This document shows positions 6,506 through 25,407 of a stretch of DNA of 59,152 bases, piece after piece. This DNA comes from Candidatus Yanofskybacteria bacterium RIFCSPHIGHO2_01_FULL_44_24 (GTDB lineage Bacteria; Patescibacteriota; Minisyncoccia; 2-02-FULL-40-12; GWA2-44-9), in contig MGJK01000018.1 in assembly GCA_001794215.1 (NCBI GenBank), positions 1 through 59,152 on the forward strand, read 5' to 3'. How positions within the stretch are numbered: position 1 is the stretch's first letter; each line of letters starts with the position of its first letter. The notes under the pieces were generated by a model. That model searched no databases and was not told the DNA's origin. It saw only the letters and a program-made list of their open reading frames with translations. The translations under genes and the position numbers were made by a program.

Positions 6506-7075
6506 TTACCGGCGGGAAGGTCGTGGAGCTGACGGTCCTCGGCGAGGACGATCAGCCTTGGGAGGATCGGGGACGACGACGGGTGGTGCGGGGGTCACGT
6601 GCCGGCGGACGGCTTCGGTCTTTCGAAGCTCTTTCTGCTCTTTTGCGCGACGAGCTTCCTCTAGCGCTTGGTCTTGTCGCAGAACCTCCTGGTACTCCGA
6701 GTCGGCTTTCCTGAAACTCGATGCCGATATCCAGAAGACGACTCCAGTTGGGCAATCAAGTCTGGTTTTCTCCTTTTCCGAATTGGAATACCGGACGAGA
6801 ACCTCTTCATCGACCTGCTCAAGCGCGATCATCTTGGCGCCCGTAACACGAAAACATACGCCGAGCGCCTTCACGACGGACTCGGCCTGAATCTCATGCA
6901 AGTTCATTGGCAGAATCTCTGAGGTCCGCCAACTGTCCGCCCCCGGATCCGTCACGGTCGTACCGGGCGTAATCGGAGCCTCACCACGAGCACCGATGAT
7001 GTCTGGTACGATGGTGACCATCGGACCACAGACACAAATTAGCAACGCCAGTAGAAAATAGACTTTTTTCGACAT
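6506..7075 (-). CDS. hypothetical secreted/anchored protein with Pro/Arg-rich C-terminus; compositionally GC-rich gene
   Basis: Start moved to ATG 7075 (MSKKVYFLLALLICVCG) because AAAGGAGG lies 5 nt upstream. The gene is far more GC-rich than its neighbours: my hand count gives about 40/60 G+C at its 3' end versus about 25/60 at the start of the neighbouring gene. Confidence 0.6.
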   Translation of the reverse strand: MSKKVYFLLALLICVCGPMVTIVPDIIGARGEAPITPGTTVTDPGADSWRTSEILPMNLHEIQAESVVKALGVCFRVTGAKMIALEQVDEEVLVRYSNSEKEKTRLDCPTGVVFWISASSFRKADSEYQEVLRQDQALEEARRAKEQKELRKTEAVRRHVTPAPPVVVPDPPKADRPRRGPSAPRPSRR

Positions 7076-7193
7076 TCCTGCCTCCTTTGGCCTCTCCGCC
7101 GTTGTAGGTAGAACTTGACTTGTATATTGTACCATGTTTCTAAGAATAAATCAATACCCTGAAATTTAGCCTAAAATGGCCTAAAAACACACA

Positions 7194-7216
7194 AAAACCA
7201 CCTTTGGGTGGTTTTT
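7194..7216. terminator. bidirectional hairpin terminator
   Basis: AAAAACCACC-TTTG-GGTGGTTTTT, 23 nt downstream of the minus-strand 7239-7424 ORF. Confidence 0.7.
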
Positions 7217-7238
7217 GATTTTGAAATCGATACTACTT

Positions 7239-7424
7239 CTACTTGTCTTCTTGCGGAGGACAGATGCAATTTTCTTCGGCATCTTCACAGCCGGAACATT
7301 TTGGCATGCAACGGTCACCGCCGCACTCGTGCTCCGGATCGTGCTTCTCCGAAACAGAGTCGCAATCAGGGCATTTATAGCCCTTCCCCGGCCTCCCGCA
7401 ACTTTTACATTTTGTATCTTCCAT
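7239..7424 (-). CDS. small cysteine-rich putative metal-binding protein (10 Cys in 61 aa)
   Basis: Cys pairs C-x2-C, C-x2-C, C-x4-C, C-x2-C and C-x-C, plus His and acidic residues. It has its own terminator and a promoter-like sequence. Confidence 0.6.
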   Translation of the reverse strand: MEDTKCKSCGRPGKGYKCPDCDSVSEKHDPEHECGGDRCMPKCSGCEDAEENCICPPQEDK

Positions 7425-7430
7425 ATATTA

Positions 7431-7458
7431 ATTATAATACGAGGTAATTATTAGGCAA
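7431..7458 (-). promoter_or_regulatory. sigma70-like promoter, possibly giving a leaderless mRNA
   Basis: Minus strand reads TTGCCT, 16 nt, TATAAT, then 6 nt (TAATAT) before the ATG at 7424. No SD is present. Confidence 0.35.
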
Positions 7459-7471
7459 ATTGGAGATAAAC

Positions 7472-7494
7472 AAAAGACCGCCTATTGGCGGTCA
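7472..7494 (-). terminator. rho-independent terminator
   Basis: GACCGCC-AATA-GGCGGTC followed by TTTTG on the minus strand. It overlaps the stop of the 7492-8055 ORF. Confidence 0.65.
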
Positions 7495-8055
7495 GTACAA
7501 GAAATGACTCAATCTAACCATCAAGGAAACGGCTAAGTACCATAAGCCCAAGACCATGATCAGGTCGCCTATTGAAAAAGCTGCAACCCGAGAAATAGGG
7601 AAAATATCGGTCAAGATCTTGAGTTTAGTTTTCTCGTCCGCAAAACAATGTTGGGCAGGATCTAAAAGTATTGAATCCGAGAAATCTTTTCTGACGGGCA
7701 TAAGGCCTCCGTTAGGGGACACCGCCACCAAATTCAGAAAACAGCCAAGTCCCGATAAGACGAAATATAAATCATGAGATATCCAGTAGCCCCCAAAGGA
7801 ACCAATCAGTATGGCTACCTTCGAAACCCCTCTCGCATTAAAAGTAAATACGGAAAGTTTTAACTTCTTGCCATTCCTTACCCTTGACCCCAAGAATAGG
7901 TCTATAACTATAGTGATACAGGCCATCAAAACGAAACCGCAAACGAGAGTAAGATCTTTGCTCAAAAATGCGACCGCAGGCACCAAGATGGCAATCAGTA
8001 CTCCGCAAACCGTCGTAGCACGGTTAATCAACGCGAAAAGCAATAAGGCAACCAT
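7492..8055 (-). CDS. polytopic integral membrane protein, function unknown
   Basis: 187 aa with about 5-6 hydrophobic helices. GGAG lies upstream of the ATG, and a terminator sits at the 3' end. Confidence 0.7.
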   Translation of the reverse strand: MVALLLFALINRATTVCGVLIAILVPAVAFLSKDLTLVCGFVLMACITIVIDLFLGSRVRNGKKLKLSVFTFNARGVSKVAILIGSFGGYWISHDLYFVLSGLGCFLNLVAVSPNGGLMPVRKDFSDSILLDPAQHCFADEKTKLKILTDIFPISRVAAFSIGDLIMVLGLWYLAVSLMVRLSHFLY

Positions 8056-8097
8056 CCACCGGCTCCGATTTGTAAAAAATCTTTATAAGATTATACT

Positions 8098-9252
8098 GTG
8101 AACAAGGTGAAAAGTCAATCAAAAACAATATATGTCGCCATGTCTGGCGGAGTGGATTCGAGCGTTGCGGCGGCATTACTCAAAAAACAAGGCTATAACG
8201 TAGTCGGGGTTTTTATGAAGCCGTGGCAGCCTTCGGCTTCAAATTCTAAATCCCAAATCCGAAATTCTAAACAAATTCTAAATCCCAAATCCGAAATTCT
8301 AAACGGGGAACTCTGTCTATGGAAGCAGGACAGAGAGGATGCCATGCGGGCGGCGGCGGTATTGGATATACCGCTTTTGACTTGGGATTTTTCAAAAGAA
8401 TACAAAAAAGAAGTGGGAGATTATATGATCCGGGAATATAGAGCCGGCCGGACGCCGAATCCGGATGTAATGTGCAATAAGGAAATCAAATTTGGCCTGT
8501 TTCTGAAGAGGGCTTTAAGGGAGGGAGCGGACTTTATTGCTACGGGACACTACGTGCGGCTAAAGCCGCAATTTCCAATTTCCAATTTTCAATTTTCAAG
8601 GAAACCACAGACTGGATTCAGACTTCTGCAAGCGATAGACAAGAATAAAGATCAGTCGTATTTCCTATGGACCTTGACCCAGGCGCAACTGAAGCATTGT
8701 TTGTTTCCGATAGGGGATTATGTGAAGCCGGAAGTAAGGAAAATGGCCAAGAAATTCGGACTGCCTAACCATGCTAAAAAAGACAGCCAGGGAGTATGCT
8801 TTATCGGGCCGTTAGATATGAAAGAATTTCTCAAAAAATATATTAGACCCAAGAAGGGCCAAATAATAGACAAGGAAGGTACCGTCATCGGGGAACATGA
8901 TGGAGCCTTTTATTATACCATCGGCCAAAGACACGGACTGGATATAAAAAACGGCCAAGGACCATACTATGTAATCGCAAAGAATTTAAAGAAAAACATT
9001 ATCTATGTCGGTAAAGACAAAGATTTAACAACGAAGAAGGCCCATGTCTCAGGCATAAATTGGACCAACTCTCGTATTAAATTACCGACTAAGATAGACG
9101 TGAAGGTAAGATACAGAGCCAAATCAGAAACGGCTAACTTATCTAAAAGAGGGGATTTGGAATTCAGAAAACCAATTCGAGCCATTACTCCCGGCCAATC
9201 AGCCGTTTTCTATAAAGGCGAGGAACTTGTCGGAGGGGGGATTATCGACTAA
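8098..9252 (+). CDS. mnmA: tRNA-specific 2-thiouridylase MnmA carrying two repeat-derived insertions
   Basis: PP-loop SGGVDSS. Also GHYVR, KDQSYFLW and GVCFIGP (second catalytic Cys region). GTG start. Confidence 0.9.
   Translation: MNKVKSQSKTIYVAMSGGVDSSVAAALLKKQGYNVVGVFMKPWQPSASNSKSQIRNSKQILNPKSEILNGELCLWKQDREDAMRAAAVLDIPLLTWDFSKEYKKEVGDYMIREYRAGRTPNPDVMCNKEIKFGLFLKRALREGADFIATGHYVRLKPQFPISNFQFSRKPQTGFRLLQAIDKNKDQSYFLWTLTQAQLKHCLFPIGDYVKPEVRKMAKKFGLPNHAKKDSQGVCFIGPLDMKEFLKKYIRPKKGQIIDKEGTVIGEHDGAFYYTIGQRHGLDIKNGQGPYYVIAKNLKKNIIYVGKDKDLTTKKAHVSGINWTNSRIKLPTKIDVKVRYRAKSETANLSKRGDLEFRKPIRAITPGQSAVFYKGEELVGGGIID
8241..8304 (+). repeat. perfect 2 x 32-bp tandem repeat (AAATTCTAAATCCCAAATCCGAAATTCTAAAC) inside mnmA
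   Basis: 8241-8272 is identical to 8273-8304. The two copies are translated in different frames as NSKSQIRNSKQ and ILNPKSEILN. Confidence 0.95.
8569..8600 (+). repeat. AT-rich oligomer array (CAATTTC/CAATTTT units) inside mnmA
   Basis: CAATTTCCAATTTCCAATTTTCAATTTTCAAG encodes QFPISNFQFS. It is the reverse-orientation relative of the AAATTC/GAAAATTG family. Confidence 0.85.
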
Positions 9253-9262
9253 TATATTAATT

Positions 9263-9496
9263 ATGACGGAAAATATAAAACCCAAGAGGGAAGCGGTGAT
9301 AGAGAATGACATCGAAGATGCTGTTTTTCAGGCCAAAATGGAAGCCAAGAGAGATAAGATAGACATGGAGGGGGCGAGCAGGGTTATCACGAAACTCATC
9401 AAAGAAGGAGAGATAACCCCATCGTCAACTGTTTCGGAATTAATGTGGTCTATAAATCGCGAGCTCGAAGATCTGAAAGATATAAAAGATCTTTAG
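9263..9496 (+). CDS. small acidic hypothetical protein
   Basis: ATG at 9263 is preferred over the track start at 9227, which overlaps mnmA. 77 aa, no recognisable motif. Confidence 0.45.
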   Translation: MTENIKPKREAVIENDIEDAVFQAKMEAKRDKIDMEGASRVITKLIKEGEITPSSTVSELMWSINRELEDLKDIKDL

Positions 9497-9500
9497 TTGC

Positions 9501-10889
9501 TCAAGATAGAATTCTGACCAACCTCGACCACTTCTCAATCGGCTCTTGGACAAGGAGTCGTATTGTCTTTAGCCTGCCCTCTTCATCAGATCCGCACATC
9601 TCCAGCAATCGACCCGCTGCTTTTAGGGCTAAACCGAGGCTATTTTTGTATGTTTTATCCCAATCCTCCTTTACAATTCCCGAAAATTTCTCAGCGAGCT
9701 CCTCCTCGGAAATCTTTTCTCCGCCAACCGTCAGGTTGATGGAAAGACTCTTTATTTCCCGAATAATATACTCTGGGAATACCCGGTCGACATTATAATC
9801 TCTATAAAAATTATAAATACCGTCTTCTTCTTCAAGCAACGCCCTTACATCGTCGACGGAACGGCCTTCTCTAATATAGGCAAGGATTTCTGTTTTTGCG
9901 CTACCGAGCAGTTGCATTATTACTCCTTTTGAATATCGTTTTACCCATTTTAAAAAATCTTGAAGATCAACCGACTGGTCCATAAACTGATATATTTCCA
10001 AATCTATGCCATTCAGTTTCAAACTGGTATCAAAAAGTCTATCCGAATACAGCCCGGTATGAATAGCATGTTCTTCTTCGTGGGTCTTCGTTTTATCTAA
10101 ATCCGCCTCTAAATATCCCGCGGCGGAAGCATTCTCAATTATCACCTTAGATGAGAGCTCCGGAACTGCCTCAAAGCTATGTCGGATAAAAGACCCTCCG
10201 GTCGTGCTAAGATTCAAAACTTCTCTTTTATTTTCGGCCTCGCGGCCCAAATAAGCCCTAACGTAATCGCTCAAATCATAAATATGAAAATAAACACTAT
10301 TCGGAGCCTGCTCAATCTGTAAACCGCCTGCCGGATATCTTCCAAATAAATCTTTAAATAGTTCATCTTCCCAATTTCTTCTCTCAGAATCCTCTTCGGA
10401 AGCCTGCTTATAGCGATTAATAACCGACTTAATATCCCTCCTGCCCTCCAAATATCGAGCCATCCCTTGCCTAAAACCTTCGCCCAAAGATACGTGGTTT
10501 TGAACCAATACCTCCTGAACCGCGTCTTCAACCTGTTCCCACGGCAAATCCGGGTCTTTCCGCAGCAACTGCTCAATCTGAATCTGGGCATCCATCATAT
10601 TTTCTCTCATTGCGGCTAATTTCTTTTTAAAATCGCGCATCAAGATTCTCCTCTGGTCCGATTGGACTTCGGCCGGCATGCTTGAGACAAGTTTTCTTAT
10701 CTCTCTCAACTCCCACCCCGGATCAAATTCGGTTATATCAAGATGCTCTCTTTTGAACTTCAAAGTCTCCGGAAGAAGTATCTCCGGTTTTCTTTCTCCT
10801 GTTTCAATCCTTTTCTCTTCGGATTTTTCACCGCTATGAGTTTCTTTCGGTTCCCACTCCTTTGTGATTTTGATCTTTATCCTTTCCAT
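9501..10889 (-). CDS. hypothetical cytoplasmic protein with an HEEEH (HExxH-like) motif
   Basis: 462-aa ORF, charged N-terminus, THEEEHAIHTG motif. No family recognised. Confidence 0.7.
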   Translation of the reverse strand: MERIKIKITKEWEPKETHSGEKSEEKRIETGERKPEILLPETLKFKREHLDITEFDPGWELREIRKLVSSMPAEVQSDQRRILMRDFKKKLAAMRENMMDAQIQIEQLLRKDPDLPWEQVEDAVQEVLVQNHVSLGEGFRQGMARYLEGRRDIKSVINRYKQASEEDSERRNWEDELFKDLFGRYPAGGLQIEQAPNSVYFHIYDLSDYVRAYLGREAENKREVLNLSTTGGSFIRHSFEAVPELSSKVIIENASAAGYLEADLDKTKTHEEEHAIHTGLYSDRLFDTSLKLNGIDLEIYQFMDQSVDLQDFLKWVKRYSKGVIMQLLGSAKTEILAYIREGRSVDDVRALLEEEDGIYNFYRDYNVDRVFPEYIIREIKSLSINLTVGGEKISEEELAEKFSGIVKEDWDKTYKNSLGLALKAAGRLLEMCGSDEEGRLKTIRLLVQEPIEKWSRLVRILS

Positions 10890-10899
10890 AATAAACAGG

Positions 10900-12447
10900 T
10901 TATGAAAGGTTTCTAATCAAGCTTTCGCCCGTCATTTCAGCAGGCTTTTCAATGCCCATTATTTCAAGGATGGTCGGAGCCACATCGGCCAAGACTCCTT
11001 TAACGTCAGAGAACGACTGAGCGATCTCTCCGTCCGAGCGCAATCTTTGATATTCCCCGACTATGAGATGAAAGGGGACGGGATTGGGATCGTGCTTTGT
11101 TTCTTCTGAGCCAGAACCGTGATAAACGACCGATTCAGCATTCCCGTGATCAGCGGTAATCACTAAAATACCGTTTTTGGCCAACACTGCATCCTTAAGG
11201 GCCCCGATGGCCTTATCGATGGCCTCGACCCCCATCACCACTTTATCGAAATTGCCCTGATGAGCCAAGATATCTGCATTAGCAAAGTTAATAACCATAA
11301 ATTCATAGAAATCTTTATTCAACTCTTCAACCGCCCGAGCCAAGATTTCCTGCGCCTTCATTTCGGGCTGATTACCCGGGTTTTTAACCGACTCAATCAG
11401 CAAATCGACTTCCCCCGGAAACTTGCGGTCTTGCAAGCAGTTAAAAAAGTAGGTAACGTGAGCATACTTTTCCGTCTCGGCAATATGAAGCTGGTTGATA
11501 CCGGCCTTGCTCAATGCCTCCGTCAGTCCGTTTTCAATCGTAGGCATAGGGAACATAACTTTGAGGCTCGGATGTTCGAAATACTGAGTCATGCCCGCTA
11601 CAAAAAGATTACTCACCTTCGATCTCGGAAAAGCGTTGAAGTCGTCCTCGACGAACGATCTTGCTATCTGGCGCATACTGTCTTCTCGGAAGTTAAAGAA
11701 TATCAAAGCATCTCCGGAGCCTATAAGGCCGCTGCGATCGGCTACCAACGGAGGAATCTTGCCGTCGGTAATTCCCTCCGCGTAACAGCGTTCTATCCTG
11801 GCAGAAACATCGCTTACGTCCTCGCCGACACCTTGCGTCAAAAGATCATAAGTTTGAGCCGTAAGGTCCCAATTTTTATTCCTATCCATGGCATAGTCCC
11901 TGCCGATAACCGTCGCAATCTGGCCGGTACCATTTTCACTTTTCATGTATTCAACCGCCTTCTTCAACGTGCTGGTCGCCTCCTTTAATCCGGAATCCTT
12001 GCCGTCGGTAAAAAGATGGATTTTAAGATCTATATTATTTTTTTTAGCAAAATTCATCAGGCCCGAAATATGCCCGAGATAAGCATGAACCGAACCGGAA
12101 GTCAAAAGTCCGGCTATGTGAAGCTTGGAATTATTCTTCTTGATATGCTCAAGGGCCTCCAGAAGCACCGGGTTCTCAAAAAAAGCTCCGGATTCAATGG
12201 CCTTGTTAATACGACTCATGTATTGAAAGATAATTCTTCCGGCCCCGATCGTGAGGTGGCCGACCTCGCTGTTTCCCGGCTCTCCCCAAGTCATACCGAC
12301 GGCTTTTCCGGAAGCCTGAAGAAGAAGAGACGGATAATTCTGGCCGATATAGTTTATATTCGGAGTTTGAGCCTTTAAAATTGCATTGCCGATCTTCTGC
12401 TTCGAGTAACCCCAGCCGTCTAAAATTGCAAGGACAATTGGTCGCAT
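10900..12447 (-). CDS. gpmI: 2,3-bisphosphoglycerate-independent phosphoglycerate mutase
   Basis: MRPIVLAILDGWG, NSEVGHLTIGAGR and TADHGNAE. Start set at the internal ATG 12447, matching the family N-terminus. Confidence 0.9.
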   Translation of the reverse strand: MRPIVLAILDGWGYSKQKIGNAILKAQTPNINYIGQNYPSLLLQASGKAVGMTWGEPGNSEVGHLTIGAGRIIFQYMSRINKAIESGAFFENPVLLEALEHIKKNNSKLHIAGLLTSGSVHAYLGHISGLMNFAKKNNIDLKIHLFTDGKDSGLKEATSTLKKAVEYMKSENGTGQIATVIGRDYAMDRNKNWDLTAQTYDLLTQGVGEDVSDVSARIERCYAEGITDGKIPPLVADRSGLIGSGDALIFFNFREDSMRQIARSFVEDDFNAFPRSKVSNLFVAGMTQYFEHPSLKVMFPMPTIENGLTEALSKAGINQLHIAETEKYAHVTYFFNCLQDRKFPGEVDLLIESVKNPGNQPEMKAQEILARAVEELNKDFYEFMVINFANADILAHQGNFDKVVMGVEAIDKAIGALKDAVLAKNGILVITADHGNAESVVYHGSGSEETKHDPNPVPFHLIVGEYQRLRSDGEIAQSFSDVKGVLADVAPTILEIMGIEKPAEMTGESLIRNLS

Positions 12448-14649: not shown

Positions 14650-14965
14650 TCTCGACCCCGATTCTCTCGAGGCACCGCATAGATACACTCAGCCTTGACT
14701 TATTCGAGGCACGCCATAAAGACGCTCCACTTTAACCCATGCAAGGCACGGCGTAAATTTCTCACTGAAATTTCGCCTTTTACCTGCCTGCCGGCAGGCA
14801 GGCTCGGCCCAGTCGGCCTCCGTAAATCCTTTCATGGTCTAAAGCTTCGCTTGGTGTTTGAACAAAAAGCCTGCGGGAATACTCTCATGAACAAAGAGCG
14901 GGGTCTCAAATGCTTCAGAATGACAAGGGGCTTCGCCTTAGTTTCCCTTAGTCGGATTAAGGCTC
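14650..14965 (-). repeat. R1 intergenic repeat, copy A (reverse orientation), interrupted by PAL20
   Basis: The reverse complement of 14803-14880 matches GGATTTACGGAGGCCGACTGGGCCGAG and upstream units of copies B and C. It contains a covarying hairpin at 14750-14777. Confidence 0.8.
14783..14802. repeat. PAL20 perfect palindrome CCTGCCTGCCGGCAGGCAGG inserted in R1 copy A
   Basis: Copies B and C read CCGAG-TAAAAGG without interruption. Copy A has the palindrome (plus one G) at exactly this junction. Confidence 0.9.
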
Positions 14966-15608: not shown

Positions 15609-16871
15609 ATGAAAGAGAACGAATGGGCCATCTGCCTGCCCGGTACTTTTGCAAGGTTGGCTCCGCATACCGGCGCTCTCCATGAACTGTTGCAGGCATA
15701 TAATGACGGCCGGCTGCTAAAAGAACCGTCGTATATTTGCACTTCTTCCGTTGCCGCCATTCCGGCAACAATTGCCGCCCATCGTTCAGAAGAAAAGTTT
15801 CAAGAGATCGAGAAAATGCTTCTCACCCTCAAAAAGCGGCATTTCGCCGGAATTCATCCCCAATTAAAAAACCGGGCCAGCATTGATTTCGCGGCCATTG
15901 TAGGATTCATATTTGCTACCCACCAAATTGGCAGGATAGATAATCCCTGGATAAGAAATCTGCTGCTCCTAAGCCTCATTTATCCGGCCTATCAGATTAC
16001 CAAGAAAACCATCAAAGATATTTTTACGGTAGAGGCGTTTTTAACTTACGAAAACCTTGAAAAACTTCTGATGAAGGTGCTGGATTTTGAAGCAATATTC
16101 AGTTCCCCGATGAAGATAGAAATTCCGGCCGTGAACATCAATAAAGCCGGATGGCTTTTGAGCGAAGTCCTTTCCGACCCGCCGGTTTATCTCCATGGCT
16201 GGAAAAATAAAGGCTGGGTGAGCGTGACCAACTTCAAGCCTGAAGATGTGGATATGGACAGAGAGACCCGAAATAAAAAGTATGTGGCTAAACTGATCAA
16301 CGGCCTTCGTGTTTACGGACATTTCCCTCCGGGAAGACATGAGAATGATGACGCTATTGTTGATACCGCCGCACTGAGCAATTTGCCGATACATTTTGCC
16401 CTGAACCAAGGATACAATAATATCGTGGTTTTCTATTATGATTCGGCTTCTGAAGGGCCGGTCAGTACTCATTTCAAAAGCTGGCCCAGTTCATTGAACC
16501 GGGACTTCGACGTCACAATATCCGAAGCCACCCGCAAGACTCTGCTTGGCTATCTGCGAGTCAACAACGATCTTGAACAGCTTCGCAGAACTCGAGAAAC
16601 CCTGAAAGAGATGGCTGATATTGCCGACGGACCCCATATGGATGCGACCGCCCGAAAATCTATTCGGACTAATATCGACGTCATTGAGGAATCGATGAAA
16701 AATTTGTCCTACGCGCATAAGCAAAGAATAAACTTTATCTTTGTCGGTTCAGATCCTTTGCCAGCTATCCATTTCGGAAACTTCCGCAACGAAGATCTGG
16801 CTGCCGGCATAGAAAGAGGCCGAAAAGCCGCCCAAGACGTTATTCCGGCAATTAATAAAATGATCTCATAA
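15609..16871 (+). CDS. divergent patatin-like phospholipase domain protein
   Basis: Three blocks align by eye to patatin: LPGTFARLAPHTGAL (versus GGGxRG), CTSSVAA (versus GxSxG) and IVDTAALSNLP (versus DGGxxxNxP). Ser and Asp are kept but the signature glycines are replaced. Confidence 0.65.
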   Translation: MKENEWAICLPGTFARLAPHTGALHELLQAYNDGRLLKEPSYICTSSVAAIPATIAAHRSEEKFQEIEKMLLTLKKRHFAGIHPQLKNRASIDFAAIVGFIFATHQIGRIDNPWIRNLLLLSLIYPAYQITKKTIKDIFTVEAFLTYENLEKLLMKVLDFEAIFSSPMKIEIPAVNINKAGWLLSEVLSDPPVYLHGWKNKGWVSVTNFKPEDVDMDRETRNKKYVAKLINGLRVYGHFPPGRHENDDAIVDTAALSNLPIHFALNQGYNNIVVFYYDSASEGPVSTHFKSWPSSLNRDFDVTISEATRKTLLGYLRVNNDLEQLRRTRETLKEMADIADGPHMDATARKSIRTNIDVIEESMKNLSYAHKQRINFIFVGSDPLPAIHFGNFRNEDLAAGIERGRKAAQDVIPAINKMIS

Positions 16872-16897
16872 AGCTCCTATGCAAGGAGCTTTTTGTT
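16872..16897 (+). terminator. rho-independent terminator
   Basis: AGCTCCT-ATGCA-AGGAGCT followed by TTTTTG. Confidence 0.7.
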
Positions 16898-16953
16898 TTA
16901 AACAAATAATGCTTTAATATGACCATCGTTGTTTAAAAAGAGGGTATTGCACC

Positions 16954-18246
16954 GTGTCGGAAACGATAGATACTGATCTGGTGGTAATCGGAGGGGGATT
17001 CATGGGCTTAGCTATAGCCTATCAAGCCTCCCTTTTAGGATTCCGCTCGGTCGTACTTGAAAGGAACAGGATCCGGGGACCGCACTACATGACCGGGCTC
17101 TTGTCGCCCCGGGCCGATTATATGCCGTTCGACCTTGAGTCGGCAGAGATTACCGCCCAAGAATGCGCCGAGTGGGAAAAGATGTTTCCGGATATTATAA
17201 CTCCGAAGAGGTTTCTTATTCCTATAAACGACCGGACGCCTTACGGCTCCTTGTGTTTCAGGGCTCTCATGGATATGTACAACGCTAAAACCGTCCAGAG
17301 ACTCGGAAAGCCATTCAAGCCGGAATCCTATAGAGTCAGCAGGCAAACTCTGGAACAGATGGAGCCTAACCTCAAGAAAGGATCTTTCCGTGAGGCGATA
17401 GCCTTTCATGAGCTTGTGGTGAATCCGGACCTGCTCCTTCAAAGGATGAGAAAGCATCTAAATTCCCACCCGACACTATCCAGAATAATTTCAATCCGGG
17501 ACATTGCTGATTATATAACTGACGGAAAGTACATTCGCGAAGTATCAATTACCACTGGCGAAGGAGATCAAGTAAATTTATCGAGCCGCAAGAAAGCTCT
17601 GATTGTCATAAACGCAGCCGGACCGTGGTTAGCAGAGGAAGCGAAAAATTCAGACATTGATCTGCCAGTTGAATTCAGTCTGGGCATCCAATTGAACCTG
17701 CCCGAAAGAGGATTTTTCAATTCCGGAATCATCACTTTTTCTGAAGATAAAAAATACGTCATCTGCCTTCCAAGCAACGGGCATTTGCAAATCGGTCCAA
17801 CTAACACGCCCTTTACCGGCGATCCGAATAATTTATCGCCGAACCAAAAAGACAAGGAAGCCCTGATAAGCGCGTTCAATGAAATAGTTCAGAGGTCTGT
17901 CAATCCGAGCCGATTCGAACTAAAATCAGCCGGGTTAAGAGTAAAGCTCAGCTTGTCCCGTTGCCCGGATACAAATAGACCCTTCTTCTTTCGAAAAGGC
18001 TATGAAAATTATTTCATCATCTACCCGGGCAAGACCGCCTTGGCGATGTTGGCCGCCCGGGAACTGCTGTCCGTCGCATACGGCGCCCGTTCCGCTAAGC
18101 TCCACTCTATAGACGGCGGAGCTGAGTTGAAGCTCAACAGACACAAAATATGGTCGGCTCGGCTAAAATCGATGGCAATTACCGGCATCTGCTTTGGCAG
18201 GTATTTTGTGAGATTCTTGTTCCATAAACAAACCCCTCTTGAATGA
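16954..18246 (+). CDS. FAD-dependent oxidoreductase, glycerol-3-phosphate dehydrogenase (GlpD/GlpA)-like
   Basis: GTG start. DLVVIGGGFMGLAIAY Rossmann motif, overall DAO-family layout and a hydrophobic C-terminal segment. Confidence 0.7.
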   Translation: MSETIDTDLVVIGGGFMGLAIAYQASLLGFRSVVLERNRIRGPHYMTGLLSPRADYMPFDLESAEITAQECAEWEKMFPDIITPKRFLIPINDRTPYGSLCFRALMDMYNAKTVQRLGKPFKPESYRVSRQTLEQMEPNLKKGSFREAIAFHELVVNPDLLLQRMRKHLNSHPTLSRIISIRDIADYITDGKYIREVSITTGEGDQVNLSSRKKALIVINAAGPWLAEEAKNSDIDLPVEFSLGIQLNLPERGFFNSGIITFSEDKKYVICLPSNGHLQIGPTNTPFTGDPNNLSPNQKDKEALISAFNEIVQRSVNPSRFELKSAGLRVKLSLSRCPDTNRPFFFRKGYENYFIIYPGKTALAMLAARELLSVAYGARSAKLHSIDGGAELKLNRHKIWSARLKSMAITGICFGRYFVRFLFHKQTPLE

Positions 18247-18256
18247 GGGGTTTTGA

Positions 18257-19192
18257 TCACTTATCCCAGCCTTTGGTTTTTATCAACTCCAAAAACTTAT
18301 TTAGATCTTTAGACGACACGATGTAGGTGAAGTTGTACAGGCCTTCGGATACCATGCCGATAACCCGGCCTGCAGAATCAAAGACCGGTCCCCCTGAAAA
18401 TCCATGCTCCGATCCCATTCTCGACCTGTAGACAGCAATTAACCCCATTTTATTTGCCGGCATACTTCTAATATCGGCTGATATGGTTCCGCGAAACGTA
18501 TAGTCAAGGAGATCACCCAACACGACATCGTCAAACCCGCCGGCGGTTGGAAAAAACGATTGCCTTGGAACAAAACCGCTGGCATAATAGTATACCTGCT
18601 TATCGGGGTCCCTCTTGGATTCTTCGGACTCTACGACAACCGCTTCTTCCATCGGTAGGATCGCTAATGGAATATCCTCAGCTACCTTCAGGGCCATAAA
18701 ATCTTGAGGAGTACCCATGGGACCGATGGCCATCAGTTTCAGCGGAAGAGCCTGCGGACCGCCGGGTGTTTGTACTACGCAGTAAATTCTATATTTGTAC
18801 CCGATGCCTTCCGGCAGTCCATTAGGATCATATATTATCGGCAACCCCAGCCTTGCAAGTCTCGTCATTGGCATCAGTAAAACATGGCGGGCGGTTAGAA
18901 TAATATTTTTAGAGACCCGGAATCCGGTTCCGAAGCTTATTTGAAAAAATTCCTTCAGATCATTTGAGCGATAAAATTCGATTAGTATCATCGTTTTATT
19001 CTTTTGGGCATTGCTGACCTCGGACGGCAGAGGATAATCGGATATGCTCGCTCCGGAAGGCGGACTGATTATATATGATCTGCCCATAGGCGCGCTTCTT
19101 TGATTGTCCGCGGTATCTTGGTCTTTAAAATTACAGCCCCCGATGAGAAAAATTAAAAATACAAGCGGAGCGATCCTGAGACCTATATTCAC
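18257..19192 (-). CDS. trypsin-like serine protease, lipoprotein
   Basis: Lipobox LIGGC. TARHVLL (His) and GFSGGPVFD (Ser) motifs. Confidence 0.8.
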   Translation of the reverse strand: MNIGLRIAPLVFLIFLIGGCNFKDQDTADNQRSAPMGRSYIISPPSGASISDYPLPSEVSNAQKNKTMILIEFYRSNDLKEFFQISFGTGFRVSKNIILTARHVLLMPMTRLARLGLPIIYDPNGLPEGIGYKYRIYCVVQTPGGPQALPLKLMAIGPMGTPQDFMALKVAEDIPLAILPMEEAVVVESEESKRDPDKQVYYYASGFVPRQSFFPTAGGFDDVVLGDLLDYTFRGTISADIRSMPANKMGLIAVYRSRMGSEHGFSGGPVFDSAGRVIGMVSEGLYNFTYIVSSKDLNKFLELIKTKGWDK

Positions 19193-19357: not shown

Positions 19358-21388
19358 ATGGGAATATTTGAGAAGATAATACCCCGCAATAAACCCAAGG
19401 AGTTTCCGATAGGGCTTCGCGACTTTACCAAGAAGGAATCAGCAAAGGCTATTCATGAGTCCCTCCCGAAGAAACCGGTCAAATCAGAAAAACCGCCTCA
19501 AGAACCTCATCAGAGGATCCCGATTGCGTTGGAAAAATTAAAAGCACAGATAGAATCTACAAAAAACCTTGAGCTAAGGCCTCGCGTTGGAATCTTAGCT
19601 GATGGTGACAAAATAGAGAACCAGCAGATTGATGTAATTGACGCAGACGACGAGGACCTTTGGAAGGTCTGTTTTAAATTAACTGAAGCCCATTACAAAC
19701 AAATACTGGGGAAAACTCGATCTGAGCCGGGCTGGTCAGAAGGACTGATATTAGTTAAACCTCGAACTGCTAATAAAAAAAAGGGGGGACCGGAAGATTC
19801 AGAAGACCATGGAATCAGGCCCTTCTTACTGAGCTCGGCTCGTTGTTATCTTATGGATGAGGGCGTGGTCGTTAAAGTCGCAACCGCCGAAACCAGAACC
19901 GGCTTCTCCAATGAGCCCATGAGAACTGCGATCGGCTTGGTGCAGGTAGAAATACCTAAAGGCGTACCCGACCAAGATAGTTTAGGGGAAAGTGTGGACG
20001 TTATTTTAAAAAAGGTATTTGAAGTTAGTGACGGACTTTCTATTCCAACAAAAGAAGCTGAGCGTCAATATAAAAAGGCCCGTTATATGTGGCACCACAA
20101 AGTAGAGAAAGATCGAGTCCCGTTTGACCTTGATTCAAGGCTCACAAGAGAAGAAGTTATGCCGGGATATTTCACCTTCGTCGAAAAGGGTAAATACCAA
20201 GAGTACCGACAAAAAACTCCTTTTGTTCTTACCCACGCACTTCACAACGTAGAGAGCCTGCCCCAAATAATTACTGCGGGAGGAATCTTGTCAACTCACG
20301 AAAGATACCGCCGAGGGCTTATTCAATCCGGTATGTCTTCAGAAAGGGATCTTGAAGTAGGCGGGGGAGACAGTGTTTTTATCAGAACTTCAACCGAAGG
20401 AAACTTTCTGACAATCCTCGGCCCCCAACTCACTATGGTTTTTGAACCTCGTATTCTGGATCGAACTGATTGGTATGCCTATATGAACGACCAGTATGGT
20501 AGCACCGATCCGGAATATTTTAGCGAAAGACTACCGCCTGCTGAACTATTTGATCTGAACAGCACCAACTCTGGCAACGAGCAAATGTTCAGAACGGGAA
20601 TAGCTTTAGCGGATATTAAAGCCCTGGTTAGTTCAGACTCCCGGAGCTTAATGAGAGCTTACGCTGTTTTAAGAAATGCCGGCATCGAAACAATAAACGG
20701 GGAACCCATGGAAGATTTTCTGGTATTGACGCCTACCGTAAGAGACGCGGCTGGACTTTCGGAAACCTTAGCTAAGCCGGATGAGGGATCTAAGGACAGT
20801 TGGCAAGATCCGGAATTCAAAACCCTTTCGAAGATTATCAAAGAAGATCCCGATAGTCTGGAGAGATACTTATACGGCGGGGCATACTATTTCATAGAAG
20901 AACTGAAAAAATATTCGAAAACTTTCGGCACGTTAAAAGATTTAGATTTTGCCAATACGTTCAATGACTGGACACGCAATAACGGTGCTTATCAGCTCGA
21001 CGCCTACCTGGGCGGCAGGGCGCTCGATGATATACGTATGCTGCTTGATCTTAAGCATGAATCAGCTACTACCCCCAAAATAGTAGAGGGGGTCTTGAGA
21101 AATTTTGAAATCAGGATTATACCATCCAGAATGAAACCTGAAGTTAAAAATAATATTTTAGCAGCCCTAAATAACCTTCACGCCTCCGTTGAAGAGGTCG
21201 TAGTTGCTGTAAGGACAGCGAAAGAAAAGTTTCAGAACCAAGGTTTTGAGACGGGATCTTCAAAAGAAGATACCCAAGATTTCATTTTGTTAGCTCAGAT
21301 AGAGGCTCGAATAACTCGGATTATAAAGATCTCCGACGGCATCGAAGGCTGGAGAAAAATATTAGCCCAGAATGAAAATACTAACTAA
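19358..21388 (+). CDS. 676-aa hypothetical protein with a central DarT/ADP-ribosyltransferase-like motif (weak)
   Basis: Long ORF. The central segment has LTHALHNVESLPQIITAGGILS, then GGGDSVFIRTS, then NEQMFRTGIALADIKALV. Its 3' end overlaps the next ORF by 17 nt. Confidence 0.75.
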   Translation: MGIFEKIIPRNKPKEFPIGLRDFTKKESAKAIHESLPKKPVKSEKPPQEPHQRIPIALEKLKAQIESTKNLELRPRVGILADGDKIENQQIDVIDADDEDLWKVCFKLTEAHYKQILGKTRSEPGWSEGLILVKPRTANKKKGGPEDSEDHGIRPFLLSSARCYLMDEGVVVKVATAETRTGFSNEPMRTAIGLVQVEIPKGVPDQDSLGESVDVILKKVFEVSDGLSIPTKEAERQYKKARYMWHHKVEKDRVPFDLDSRLTREEVMPGYFTFVEKGKYQEYRQKTPFVLTHALHNVESLPQIITAGGILSTHERYRRGLIQSGMSSERDLEVGGGDSVFIRTSTEGNFLTILGPQLTMVFEPRILDRTDWYAYMNDQYGSTDPEYFSERLPPAELFDLNSTNSGNEQMFRTGIALADIKALVSSDSRSLMRAYAVLRNAGIETINGEPMEDFLVLTPTVRDAAGLSETLAKPDEGSKDSWQDPEFKTLSKIIKEDPDSLERYLYGGAYYFIEELKKYSKTFGTLKDLDFANTFNDWTRNNGAYQLDAYLGGRALDDIRMLLDLKHESATTPKIVEGVLRNFEIRIIPSRMKPEVKNNILAALNNLHASVEEVVVAVRTAKEKFQNQGFETGSSKEDTQDFILLAQIEARITRIIKISDGIEGWRKILAQNENTN

Positions 21389-21713
21389 TAAAAAAGTTTA
21401 TTATGTTTTCTGCCCGGATGATCCGACGGTTTTGGTTGCTATGGATATTAAACTGACCGACTCGAACACAATAACCTGGCTTGATACCGTCAAGGAAAGG
21501 TCAATGACCATAGAAAGGGTCGCGGAAAACGTCGAAGATCGGTTCGTATTCGACAGAAGCCAAAAAGAGGGCGGGGGCACCTACACATTTGTTCCAATGA
21601 CACTCGCTATATATAATGACGGGGTGAAAAGTCACCTTCTTTCTCCCGGAGACTTTGAATCCGAAGAGAAAATGATCGAAGCTTTTGAAAAGACCAGGTC
21701 TAACATTTGGTAA
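21372..21713 (+). CDS. 113-aa hypothetical protein, translationally coupled
   Basis: Its ATG lies inside the last codons of the upstream gene. No motif recognised. Confidence 0.6.
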   Translation: MKILTNKKVYYVFCPDDPTVLVAMDIKLTDSNTITWLDTVKERSMTIERVAENVEDRFVFDRSQKEGGGTYTFVPMTLAIYNDGVKSHLLSPGDFESEEKMIEAFEKTRSNIW

Positions 21714-21715
21714 AC

Positions 21716-22762
21716 ATGATTAAGGAATTACTCTATCCAAAAAAAGATGCTCCTGCCGCTAAAATCGAGAAGGTTTCAGAGTACGACGTTGTGCTGAATA
21801 ATCCCGAAATTGTTTCCCATACGGCTTTAGACTTTAAACTTCCTGAATACGAGGGCAGAGAGTTAAGGCCCGGTCATAAAATAATCTTTAAAGTGCCCGA
21901 TGACTTTAAGGACAGAGTAATTAGAGATGTGATCTTGCGCCATCGGAAAGGAAATACATACAGAGTCGATATAGGTCCGGACGGCCATGATCCTTACGGC
22001 GCATATAGTCGAGTAGAATTGAGGGACTCAAAATCAGGACAATGGCGCGAGTGGAGGGATCCCGCCGGATATAATCCGGTTAAATTTGCCGAACCAAGAT
22101 CTGCCGGAGATCCCGAGAATGAGGTTCTGCATGATTGGGTAGCTATGGTTGGAATTATAACACCTGACGCCGCGAGAGTGACCAATGAGGGCAAAGACGA
22201 TAGATATAGCGTTTCTCAAATTCACGGTCTTGAGATGGTCTTTTTTCCAGAGCAAGAGGGCTTAACTTATAATCAAAATATCTATACCCAAGGAACGTCT
22301 TTTATTGACTTTGCAAGTAAAAACCTCCTCCCTCAATACGGCGGAGGCGAGCATACGGCCGGTGTTTATAAAGATGCTGTTGTTCTGGGCAGTTATCACT
22401 CCAAAGACCAAGAAATACATGGAGAATCTTCATTGAACACAAGAGTAGAGGGTTCTCGGTTAATTATTAAACCTACGCCCGGGAAAAAGATAGTGCAGAT
22501 AGAGGTTGCCATCGGCGATACCGAGCACAGGCCGGATGGGAATAATCGCTTAGGTTGGGCCAAGCTATGGGTAGGAATCAGAAGAAGTTCCAGTCGAAAT
22601 ATAGACTGGTTTATAAAAAACGCTAACGTACCGCCCCAGGGCGTAATAGCTGGCGGACCGCACATAGATCAAGGCCTAATAAATCCTGATGATGAAATTA
22701 TAATAGAATCAAGAAATGACACCTCTTATATAATGGGCTGGCGTTTAGCCTCTAAAGATTAA
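21716..22762 (+). CDS. hypothetical beta-rich protein (about 349 aa)
   Basis: ATG at 21716, 3 nt after the upstream stop; the track's TTG at 21707 is an alternative. A strong terminator follows. Confidence 0.7.
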   Translation: MIKELLYPKKDAPAAKIEKVSEYDVVLNNPEIVSHTALDFKLPEYEGRELRPGHKIIFKVPDDFKDRVIRDVILRHRKGNTYRVDIGPDGHDPYGAYSRVELRDSKSGQWREWRDPAGYNPVKFAEPRSAGDPENEVLHDWVAMVGIITPDAARVTNEGKDDRYSVSQIHGLEMVFFPEQEGLTYNQNIYTQGTSFIDFASKNLLPQYGGGEHTAGVYKDAVVLGSYHSKDQEIHGESSLNTRVEGSRLIIKPTPGKKIVQIEVAIGDTEHRPDGNNRLGWAKLWVGIRRSSSRNIDWFIKNANVPPQGVIAGGPHIDQGLINPDDEIIIESRNDTSYIMGWRLASKD

Positions 22763-22780
22763 AGCCATAGATAGTTCTTT

Positions 22781-22818
22781 CCAAAACAAAAACCAGCTGT
22801 TGCTGGTTTTTGTTTTGG
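22781..22818 (+). terminator. strong rho-independent terminator (17-bp stem)
   Basis: CCAAAACAAAAACCAGC-TGTT-GCTGGTTTTTGTTTTGG. Confidence 0.8.
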
Positions 22819-22916
22819 AAATTGAAATTAGGTTGCCTTTTAGCCCTCCTCATATTATCATAAAGACAAGTTTTAGCAGTGTTAAATAAAATCGCGGGTA
22901 TCGTATAATGGTAGTA

Positions 22917-22936
22917 CCTGCCTGCCGGCAGGCAGG
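22917..22936. repeat. PAL20 perfect palindrome CCTGCCTGCCGGCAGGCAGG at the anticodon-arm position of the outer tRNA
   Basis: Identical 20-mer to 14783-14802, with the same TA...C flanks. Confidence 0.9.
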
Positions 22937-22966
22937 CGGCAACAATTTATAATATGGATTGAGTGA

Positions 22967-23037
22967 GCGGGATTCGTATATCGGTAATACATGAGTTTTC
23001 CAAACTCAAGAGACGGGTTCGACTCCCGTATCCCGCT
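22967..23037 (+). tRNA. tRNA-Gly (anticodon UCC)
   Basis: Hand-folded cloverleaf. Acceptor GCGGGAT/ATCCCGC, D stem GTAT/ATAC, anticodon stem TGAGT/ACTCA with loop TTTCCAA, T arm ACGGG-TTCGACT-CCCGT, discriminator T. No encoded CCA. Confidence 0.9.
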
Positions 23038-23097
23038 CAGTCAATCTATGTTCAGTTAGACTGTCGGCCGGGGTTCGATTCCCCGTACCCGCTCTAT

Positions 23098-23596: not shown

Positions 23597-23685
23597 TAGC
23601 CGCTTTTTTAATTGCTTTTAGCCCTTTCTGCTGATAAGCTATGTATATAAAATAGGCCAACCGATGGCTGTCAAAAGATTTTTAT

Positions 23686-25307: not shown

Positions 25308-25407
25308 GATGCAAGTCCTTTTTAATTGATTTCAGCCGACCCCGCTGATAAAATAAGAATAGAAAATAACCTAACAAACACTCGAGTCTTGAATCTGTTT
25401 TAATATA

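Follow-up and report, generated by a model that had tools for sequence, protein, structure and literature searches.

What kind of system is encoded by three tightly packed genes whose products match no named protein family? The question is raised by a locus of Candidatus Yanofskybacteria bacterium RIFCSPHIGHO2_01_FULL_44_24, an uncultivated groundwater bacterium, within the 59,152-nucleotide stretch of DNA analysed here (the window). Much of bacterial diversity belongs to the candidate phyla radiation (CPR, Patescibacteria), yet the function of most proteins peculiar to these lineages has still to be assigned. The three genes, A, B and C, form a widely conserved and undescribed module. They are best read as a new ADP-ribosyltransferase (ART) family set in a three-part module resembling toxin–antitoxin (TA) systems, where A would be the writer, B an inhibitor or adaptor and C a shared hub.

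The gene structure observed in the window is compact. All on the plus strand, gene A occupies 19358..21388 (676 aa), gene B 21372..21713 (113 aa, a small acidic protein of pI 4.9) and gene C either 21716..22762 from an ATG (348 aa) or 21707..22762 from a TTG at 21707 (351 aa). The open reading frame list agrees with the trio of about 676, 113 and about 349 aa reported by the first-pass annotation, and the coordinates confirm its 17-nt overlap between A and B. At the B/C junction, the 7-nt overlap given for the TTG start is correct because the stop codon of B lies at 21711-21713, whereas the gap before the ATG is 2 nt and not 3. Homologues of C begin where ATG 21716 sits. A, B and C are real genes rather than chance open reading frames, and they are translationally coupled. 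The divergent protease noted upstream is a Trypsin_2 (trypsin-like) peptidase gene on the minus strand (18257-19192, E 1.4e-10). The very strong terminator and tRNA locus described downstream were also recovered: a perfect inverted repeat with a 20-bp stem and a 4-nt loop (22778..22821, no strand assigned), 16 nt past the stop codon of C, is likely the terminator of the operon and precedes a tRNA-Gly(UCC) gene (22967-23038). A search for att-like direct repeats around the trio found none, the sole notable repeat being this 20-bp palindrome. The sequencing runs containing the locus are DNA runs only.

That none of the three proteins could be assigned to a family was upheld by searches of Pfam, NCBIfam, PADLOC and PHROGs, which gave no family match, and by sequence searches of the PDB, run both with single sequences and with the profiles A1, A3 and A4, which gave none either. 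The description of the operon as an orphan was not upheld, as homologues of A, B and C are numerous and the trio is kept elsewhere. In a 50%-identity library, family A has 2394 representatives at E<=1e-3, and the best 150 of these all span the core at E<=1e-71; its size can be put at 150 or more clusters at 50% identity, rising to about 2,400 at the looser threshold. Family C has at least 97 clusters at 90% identity, its homologues (at least 97) being 43-58% identical across deep CPR lineages. The co-conservation proposed as a check on the system was found, with the order A-B-C recurring in at least 10 CPR lineages; besides the window, it is seen in Azambacteria, Colwellbacteria, Saccharibacteria, Peribacteria and other CPR genomes from metagenomes. 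The overlapping or near-abutting junctions, the conserved order and the co-variation of the three proteins in pairwise identity (r 0.86-0.89) indicate that the module is a unit, and the genes flanking it differ from genome to genome in every case.

The suggestion that A is an ART had come from three central segments, all of which are present in the sequence: FVLTHAL...HERYRRG (residues 289-320), GGGDSVFIRTS (residues 335-345) and NEQMFRTGIALADIKALV (residues 407-424). The gaps separating them are 14 and 61 aa, shorter than the estimates of about 25 and about 70. When conservation was counted over 149 family members, the proposed His, aromatic residue and Glu proved nearly invariant, and the predicted strands that carry them follow one another as expected of an H-Y-E ART. 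H293 (20234-20236, 139/149) lies in strand 289-295, F341 (20378-20380, 146/149) in strand 339-346, and E408 (20579-20581, 145/149) starts strand 407-412; with R316 (20303-20305, 147/149), these plus-strand positions are the candidate catalytic residues, in columns that are 93-99% conserved. This is the layout of the ARTD (H-Y-[EDQ]) clade as defined in PMC9967889, where the clades of ART-fold proteins are listed: within a split beta-sheet ART fold, beta-1 bears a His, a core strand bears an aromatic residue and the catalytic strand opens with an acidic one, with the deviation that A carries Phe instead of Tyr. In order and predicted strand placement, H293, R316/R343, F341 and E408 appear to fit residues H13, R51, Y71 and E160 of Thermus DarT (PMC9967889) and E152 of DarT1 (PMC11543638).

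The predicted structure agrees with this picture. The AlphaFold2 (AF2) model of A has a pLDDT of 81.5 and a pTM of 0.78, with pLDDT mostly >90 over residues 50-470, and the similarity to ART folds that was to be looked for is observed: ranks 1-8 of a Foldseek search of the PDB are all DarT (8baq, 7omv, 7omx, 7yk3_C, 7omy, 7omw, 7omu and 7yk3_A). The match to 8baq (DarT1) has a probability of 1.00 and a target-normalised TM of 0.56, with 195 aligned of 208 residues; the E-values for DarT are weak (0.04-0.38), none reaching 1e-3. DarT, of the DarTG system (DUF4433/PF14487; 8BAQ, 7OMV-7OMY, 7YK3, 7OMU), is the best and sole consistent structural match to the centre of A. Both appear to have the same succession of features, in which the His of beta-1 leads into a helix and a G-L-S turn, with the aromatic core strand and the Glu opening the catalytic strand coming after; an extra invariant Arg is present as well, and in both the gene is tightly coupled to that of a partner. 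Unlike DarT, A is three times larger and has a conserved N-terminal domain, a helical C-terminus and an acidic ART domain for which a DNA target is doubtful. It also differs in having no sequence-profile match: the DUF4433/DarT profile check that had been recommended gave nothing at E<=1 in Pfam or PADLOC, and the 149-sequence profile of A matched no PDB chain at E<=10, DarT included. Judged by its model, A is DarT-like in fold without being a DUF4433 member, and we consider an ART fold quite probable. Among DarT-like ADP-ribosyltransferases, the family would form a new branch, one that has diverged very far.

A fold of this kind could serve another chemistry, and the DarT-like domain might then be an NAD+ glycohydrolase, an RNA 2'-phosphotransferase-like enzyme or a non-catalytic sensor of NAD or ADP-ribose, and the module would have nothing to do with ADP-ribosyl transfer. 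ART-fold proteins with other activities do exist, Tpt1/KptA and the TNT NADases among them, and a likeness confined to the fold, with weak E-values, no profile match and Phe at the canonical Tyr position, would accommodate such a function. Yet family A keeps, with few exceptions, the His and Glu by which active ARTD enzymes are defined, the ADP-ribosylglycohydrolase (ARH) genes that adjoin the module in some genomes act on ADP-ribosylated substrates, and the protein that displaces A elsewhere belongs to a bona fide ART family, DUF3626. We regard a different chemistry as decidedly unlikely.

The DarT-like ART-fold domain, delimited by Foldseek and column counts, covers residues about 226-475 (20033..20782, plus strand). 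The AF2 model places before it a disordered, basic N-terminus (residues 1-49) and a conserved alpha/beta middle domain (residues about 50-225; 19505..20032, plus strand), and after it a helical C-terminal region (residues 476-676). The middle domain contains the conserved block LELRPRVGILADxDKIENQQIDVID / FKLT, and its residues D82, E87, Q89 and K107 are kept in 122-140 of the 149 sequences, in a part where the model is confident. The Foldseek PDB search with the model of A gave no matches outside the ART domain, and a Pfam search of nine long A homologues for fused domains found none. With a pI of 5.4, the ART domain is acidic, unlike what is expected of a DNA-binding DarT, and its target may therefore not be DNA; as a calculated property, this pI weakly disfavours a DNA substrate.

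If A is indeed an ART, the trio would constitute a single, self-contained module for NAD+-dependent ADP-ribosylation. A would act as the writer, its central ART fold standing nearest to DarT in the diphtheria-toxin/PARP-like (ARTD) clade. H293 on beta-1 would bind NAD+, while F341, one core strand further on, would stack on the nicotinamide in place of Tyr. E408 would open the catalytic strand, and either R316 or R343, as an invariant Arg, may act as R51 does in DarT.

The partners of A are less familiar. The module differs from DarTG in having three components, with the small acidic B and the beta-sandwich protein C and without a macrodomain (DarG) or NADAR antitoxin; no macrodomain or NADAR gene was found in the window or adjoining the trio in any locus examined, and B and C have no Pfam match. 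Homologues of B lie between A and C in loci L001, L005, L014, L015, L016 and L022, and L029/L030 have a diverged version of 120 aa. At six other loci C is paired with D, a DUF3626 (SopF-type ART) protein that replaces A, and with E, an unrelated small acidic protein, and in this variant C is the first gene. Compared with PF12294, the D protein of L017 scores 33.8 bits (cut-off 27) and that of L013 has an E of 0.0096, whereas A has no PF12294 match. The hhalign comparison of the ART domain of A with the D proteins aligned only the Glu strand (E 0.2, not significant), and those of B with E, and of B, E and D with A and C, gave nothing significant, so that homology between A and D, or between B and E, is unsupported. 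Each ART type has a small acidic partner of its own, B for A and E for D; no D or E gene was found elsewhere in the window. B, which is specific to the ART type of A, would most likely bind A, either as an antitoxin-like inhibitor or as an adaptor. SopF, which carries DUF3626 (PMC6682159), is an ARTD-like ART activated by a protein cofactor, ARF (PMC10333799), and this requirement provides a precedent for C as a cofactor.

C, a cytoplasmic protein, is the most conserved member of the trio, with 31 invariant columns and many invariant charged residues. Its AF2 model (pLDDT 90.6, pTM 0.87) is an all-beta tandem beta-sandwich of jelly-roll/CBM-like type. Foldseek returned only generic two-beta-sandwich proteins at TM <= 0.31, among them PNGase F, reelin repeats, factor Va C domains, Vip3/Cry domains and capsid proteins, so only a generic beta-sandwich likeness is supported. 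A double-jelly-roll capsid relative and a close PNGase F relative were both considered for C and rejected, with TM <= 0.31 in PDB and BFVD. A Pfam search of ten long C homologues for fused domains found none. In our proposal C would be the conserved hub, either as the substrate of the enzyme or as a sensor or cofactor that directs or licenses it. Its link with ADP-ribosylation is drawn from the pairing with DUF3626 proteins, from the adjoining ADP_ribosyl_GH genes and from a C-like gene at locus L033.

The module would most likely act as a tripartite toxin–antitoxin or conflict cassette, in the T-A-C order of CmdTAC and HigBA-SecB. CmdT of CmdTAC is described as an ART in PMC11618068. The CmdTAC/TAC systems and A-B-C share the order of enzyme toxin, small partner and conserved third protein, and in TAC systems, as at the C loci, the conserved third component can be joined by one toxin/partner pair or another (A+B or D+E in the case of C). 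The third protein of TAC systems is a SecB-like chaperone, whereas C is a 350-aa all-beta tandem sandwich with no SecB match; the likeness here lies in gene order, coupling and the acidic small partner. The conflict flavour comes from enzyme relatives that are TA toxins (DarT by structure, a HipA-like kinase or K domain by weak sequence matches), from the own acidic partner of each ART, the shuffling of the K domain and the differing flanks, and from the tRNA gene beside the cassette. Toxicity of A would be part of this scheme, and we put the whole explanation, conflict or TA-like role included, at somewhat short of an even chance.

The ARH genes bring in a different function, namely reversible regulatory ADP-ribosylation of the DraT/DraG type without any toxin. 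A (and, in relatives, the fused HipA-like kinase) would switch C or another protein, B would be a regulatory subunit, and the ARH found beside C in some genomes would erase the mark. An ADP_ribosyl_GH gene directly follows C in three Saccharibacteria loci (L014/L024, L015/L025 and L023; E 1e-22 to 1e-62), a GGDEF domain being once fused to the ARH and once following it. As in DraT/DraG (ART + ARH, PF03747), a writer and an ARH-family eraser thus stand beside a conserved third protein in some genomes, namely at these loci and at L033; A differs from DraT in belonging to another ART clade, with no link to nitrogenase or a known target. The strong conservation of C and its many invariant polar residues resemble those of an enzyme or regulated target, and while such conservation is unusual in a conflict component, its invariant charged residues also suit an enzyme or housekeeping target better. 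Kinase domains fused to C itself, an acidic ART domain favouring protein over DNA as target, and the housekeeping genes that surround the module in most genomes point the same way. Against regulation, neither an ARH nor any other eraser is present in the window (the best tblastn match to two ARH queries had an E of 0.18), the closest structural relatives of A are toxins, and alternating non-homologous ARTs with their own partners, variable context and shuffled domains are more typical of conflict systems. Regulation of this type seems to us rather unlikely, if worth serious attention.

The shuffled domain is the HipA-like K domain, which is fused N-terminally to A in about 55 of the best 150 family representatives, and to C in L017, P0197, L029 and L030; C is found in other genomes fused to such a kinase domain or adjoining it. 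It bears the motifs GSNxGGWY, ANWDVxGLxxDN (a kinase-like catalytic loop) and DNGG, and its matches to HipA_C, HipA_2 and CtkA are weak and below threshold (best E 0.008). The likeness of the module to the HipA family (HipA_C PF07804, HipA_2 PF20613; CtkA 3AKJ) runs through this domain in some relatives of A. It is absent from the A of the window, which opens with its disordered 49-residue segment, and a K-domain HMM had no match in the whole window. Two toxin-type enzymes, a HipA-like kinase and a DarT-like ART, on one polypeptide are an unusual combination.

Multidomain architectures whose N- and C-terminal regions vary are also what might be expected if A were an effector delivered to the episymbiont's host bacterium or to competitors, with B or C as immunity, chaperone or targeting factor. 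Attachment to a host is the way of life of CPR bacteria, a T4SS-pilin-domain protein and a lytic transglycosylase are encoded in the window, and SopF-type and DarT-type ARTs and HipA-like kinases serve as toxins or effectors elsewhere. However, inspection of the sequences and Pfam searches found neither signal peptides nor transmembrane segments in A, B and C, nor any domain known from secretion or polymorphic toxins; secretion genes are unlinked to the module in every locus examined, and an immunity protein would not be expected to be as conserved as C. We find delivery of A as an effector very unlikely.

The module yields a testable biochemical hypothesis for three large families absent from Pfam, with C as a conserved beta-sandwich protein repeatedly tied to non-homologous ARTs, kinases and ADP-ribose-processing enzymes. 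Should C prove to be a reader or eraser, or else a target or cofactor, more kinds of ADP-ribosylation system would be known than at present. A bolder and, in our opinion, improbable view is that C forms the core of an unrecognised dual-modification hub (ADP-ribosylation and phosphorylation), widespread in CPR and devoted to signalling or immunity rather than being a TA variant. DarT- and SopF-like ARTs, HipA- and Zeta-like kinases, and ARH and metallophosphoesterase erasers would all plug into C, which would itself be a new kind of ADP-ribose-linked protein, perhaps a reader, or an amidase resembling PNGase F whose substrates would be ribosyl-N(amide) linkages like SopF-type products. A 373-aa gene upstream in L033, taken by eye for an R-S-E ART, was set aside, as it had no Pfam or PDB support. 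At L033 the C-like gene, 25% identical to C, is accompanied by an ADP_ribosyl_GH gene, two Metallophos genes, a Zeta-toxin-like kinase and a K-like kinase.

Three coupled genes on the plus strand of the window encode the proteins A (676 aa, 19358-21388), B (113 aa, 21372-21713) and C, and are best read as an ADP-ribosylation module of three components. The A and B genes overlap by 17 nt. C spans 351 aa from a TTG (21707-22762) or 348 aa from an ATG (21716-22762); the first-pass annotation was right about the 7-nt overlap between the TTG start and the end of B, whose stop codon lies at 21711-21713, while the 3-nt gap it gave for the other start is in fact a 2-nt gap to the ATG, the position at which C homologues begin. 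A divergent Trypsin_2 peptidase gene lies upstream (18257-19192, E 1.4e-10). A hairpin with a perfect stem of 20 bp and a 4-nt loop follows 16 nt past C (22778-22821), and a tRNA-Gly(UCC) gene stands downstream of this hairpin (22967-23038). As had been noted from the sequence, the three proteins belong to no nameable family: A, B and C have no match in Pfam, NCBIfam, PADLOC, PHROGs or PDB sequences.

An AlphaFold2 model of A based on a 149-sequence alignment reached a mean pLDDT of 81.5 and a pTM of 0.78, with residues 50-470 mostly above 90. A Foldseek search of the PDB gave nothing at E<=1e-3, and the first eight ranks were nonetheless all DarT, with probabilities up to 1.00: E. coli DarT1 (8baq), Thermus DarT (7omv/x/y/w), M. 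tuberculosis DarTG (7yk3, two chains) and Thermosipho DarTG (7omu), followed by unrelated helical proteins. Against 8baq, the target-normalised TM-score was 0.56 over 195 of 208 residues. The three motif segments reported earlier are present at residues 289-320, 335-345 and 407-424, the first two being separated by 14 aa instead of the 25 or so proposed. In the model, H293 sits in a strand (289-295) that leads into a helix and a conserved GGLLS turn, F341 in the strand 339-346 and E408 at the start of the strand 407-412. These residues are conserved in 139, 146 and 145 of the 149 aligned sequences, respectively, as are R316 (147), R343 (140), R369 and D371 (146 each) and N407 (142). The His, aromatic and Glu order is that of the ARTD (H-Y-E) clade of ADP-ribosyltransferases (ARTs), and parallels H13, R51, Y71 and E160 of Thermus DarT (PMC9967889) and E152 of DarT1 (PMC11543638). 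On this modelled evidence, A probably has an ART fold, and we regard an ART fold serving a different chemistry as improbable.

The suggested resemblance to DarT/DUF4433 thus holds for the fold and the motif order and fails for family membership, since neither the DUF4433 nor the PADLOC DarT profiles detect A. The remainder of A comprises an N-terminus that is basic and disordered, a middle domain of alpha/beta type that is well conserved (residues 50-225, with D82, E87, Q89 and K107) and a helical C-terminal region. That A is an effector delivered elsewhere seems slightly less probable still than an altered chemistry. With a pI of 5.4, the ART domain is acidic, which makes a DNA substrate less obvious for A than for DarT. 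We found no description of the A family in the literature on DarT or ARTs in Patescibacteria, Saccharibacteria or the candidate phyla radiation (CPR). The module is a new, very divergent predicted ART family in a new three-part architecture; it is not categorically new.

B is small and acidic (pI 4.5-5.3 in ten homologues), with no relatives detectable outside the A-B-C context. The model of C is of very high confidence (pLDDT 90.6, pTM 0.87) and shows two beta-sandwich domains. Its structural matches, all at TM <= 0.31, include PNGase F, zebrafish lysosomal PNGase, reelin repeats, factor Va C domains, Vip3/Cry domains, malectin-like ectodomains, jelly-roll capsid proteins and phage tail proteins; the predicted fold class is clear, yet C has no close relative. 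It lacks a signal peptide, and 31 of its alignment columns are invariant, with charged and aromatic residues frequent among them.

The operon had been called an orphan, a label contradicted by the many homologues of A and C and by the recurrence of the gene order, and the co-conservation proposed as a check was indeed observed. HMM searches of the fetched loci recovered A-B-C, its genes overlapping or directly adjoining, both in the window and in many CPR loci (L001-L006, L014/L024, L015/L025, L020 and L022). The A-B pair is convergent with C in L016, C precedes A in L021, and a diverged B of 120 aa lies between A and C in L029 and L030. A has homologues of 36-46% identity in Azambacteria, Uhrbacteria, Vogelbacteria and further CPR metagenome-assembled genomes (MAGs). 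When a library clustered at 50% identity was searched with the A profile, 2394 representatives reached E<=1e-3; the best 150 all span the core at E<=1e-71, and the long tail may be owed in part to a kinase-like domain, K. For C, at least 97 homologues were found, at 43-58% identity among the matches listed (Parcubacteria, Saccharibacteria, Colwellbacteria), with versions at 36-39% in Peribacteria and Deltaproteobacteria/Myxococcales MAGs. Over nine loci, the three proteins co-vary in pairwise identity (r 0.86-0.89) and C is in every case the most conserved. Flanking genes vary by lineage, e.g. SecDF, NadA, ribosomal proteins or tRNA. Identical copies are present on metagenome contigs from groundwater and soil. 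C homologues with N-terminal extensions (L028:7659-9074 and L031:7554-9680, 36-39% identity, Deltaproteobacteria/Myxococcales MAGs) have no detectable A, B, K or alternative partners D and E nearby, and the C family is therefore confined neither to CPR nor to ART partners.

In six loci (L013, L017, L018, L019, L026, L027), C is paired with D (387-945 aa) and E (acidic, 93-101 aa) instead of A and B. At its C-terminus, D has a domain that matches Pfam DUF3626, with 33.8 bits (cut-off 27; E 2.4e-8) in L017 and an E-value of 0.0096 in L013. The same DUF3626 domain is found in Salmonella SopF (PMC6682159), an ARTD-like ADP-ribosyltransferase whose activators are ARF GTPases (PMC10333799). Since homology between A and D or between B and E could not be demonstrated with hhalign, two distinct ART families seem to alternate beside C, each accompanied by a small acidic partner of its own. 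The L017 locus also carries a natural 673-aa fusion of K and a full C (7020-9041), followed by the 945-aa protein with the DUF3626 C-terminus and a 93-aa E (9248-12386).

K is the N-terminal domain of about 55 of the best 150 of the 2394 A representatives. It bears the motifs GSNxGGWY, ANWDVxGLxxDN and DNGG, and gives weak but consistent matches to HipA_C, HipA_2 and, in the PDB, the HipA-like kinase CtkA. It is fused to C as K-C (L017 and P0197), C-K (L029) or C-K-K (L030). The fusions of L030 (4374-7073) and L029 (3176-4846), with C-like domains, come immediately behind an A-B-C set, in a Peribacteria MAG and in an unclassified 'bacterium' MAG, so that the L030 locus holds two C paralogues.

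ADP-ribosylglycohydrolase (ARH) genes lie directly 3' of C in L014/L024 and L015/L025 (E 9.7e-62); in L014, a metallophosphoesterase gene follows. In Saccharibacteria, ARH directly 3' of C is fused to a GGDEF diguanylate-cyclase domain (L023:1103-2395) or followed by a separate GGDEF gene (L015:8211-10041), which hints at a tie between ADP-ribosylation and c-di-GMP signalling. The ARH and GGDEF neighbours speak for a regulatory system of the DraT/DraG kind, as do the strong conservation of C, the acidity of the ART domain of A and the housekeeping genes in the surroundings; to this strong rival we give less credence than to a toxin-antitoxin-like or conflict cassette. The cassette, itself held tentatively and at somewhat less than even chances, is favoured because the enzyme domains have toxin ancestry (DarT, HipA, SopF, Zeta) and are shuffled, the genomic context varies and the module adjoins a tRNA gene; its gene order is also that of toxin-antitoxin-chaperone systems such as CmdTAC. 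All these likelihoods, including that of the ART fold, are rough, were judged separately, overlap and are not normalised to unity.

Within the ADP-ribosylation module, A would act as an NAD+-dependent writer, its fold taken from the model and its activity presumed. Its size, charge and translational coupling, and the fact that each ART type has its own partner, suggest that B is a binding partner dedicated to its ART type, acting probably as an inhibitor or antitoxin, or else as an adaptor. C, which stays invariant as the ARTs, kinases and erasers next to it change, would be the conserved hub, as target, cofactor or sensor. The window holds the minimal form, K, D, E and ARH being absent from all of its 59 kb.

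A C-like gene (25% identity) also occurs on a 527-kb IMG/VR contig (L033:3355-10170), in the order ARH, two Metallophos genes, a Zeta-toxin-like kinase and the C-like gene, then a convergent, distant K-like protein (hhalign E 9e-5 against K). A reading by eye of an upstream 373-aa gene as an R-S-E ART (FRRLG ... ISS ... GEGEVIV) found no support in Pfam or the PDB and was discarded. This 'viral' contig encodes a PAS histidine kinase and may be a small cellular genome and not a phage.

The gene content of the window is of CPR type (a T4SS-pilin-domain protein, an SLT-type lytic transglycosylase, RNase Y, PriA and GltX). Upstream of the trio (15609-19192) lie a degenerate patatin-like protein, whose 26.7 bits fall just short of the Pfam cut-off of 27.7, a DAO-family FAD oxidoreductase and the trypsin-like peptidase, which has weak local PADLOC matches (RT-Protease, HamA, LmuA). 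With the CPBP/Abi and EEP genes downstream of the tRNA-Gly, they may form a variable island at 15.6-27 kb. The perfect 20-bp palindrome CCTGCCTGCCGGCAGGCAGG occurs twice in the window (14783-14802 and 22917-22936), one copy lying inside a tRNA-like remnant just 5' of the tRNA-Gly, which is itself bracketed by 26-nt inverted arms of 85% complementarity (22951-23052). A 57-nt intergenic direct repeat (23605-23661 and 25319-25375, 74% identity) lies in an islet of small membrane proteins downstream of the tRNA.
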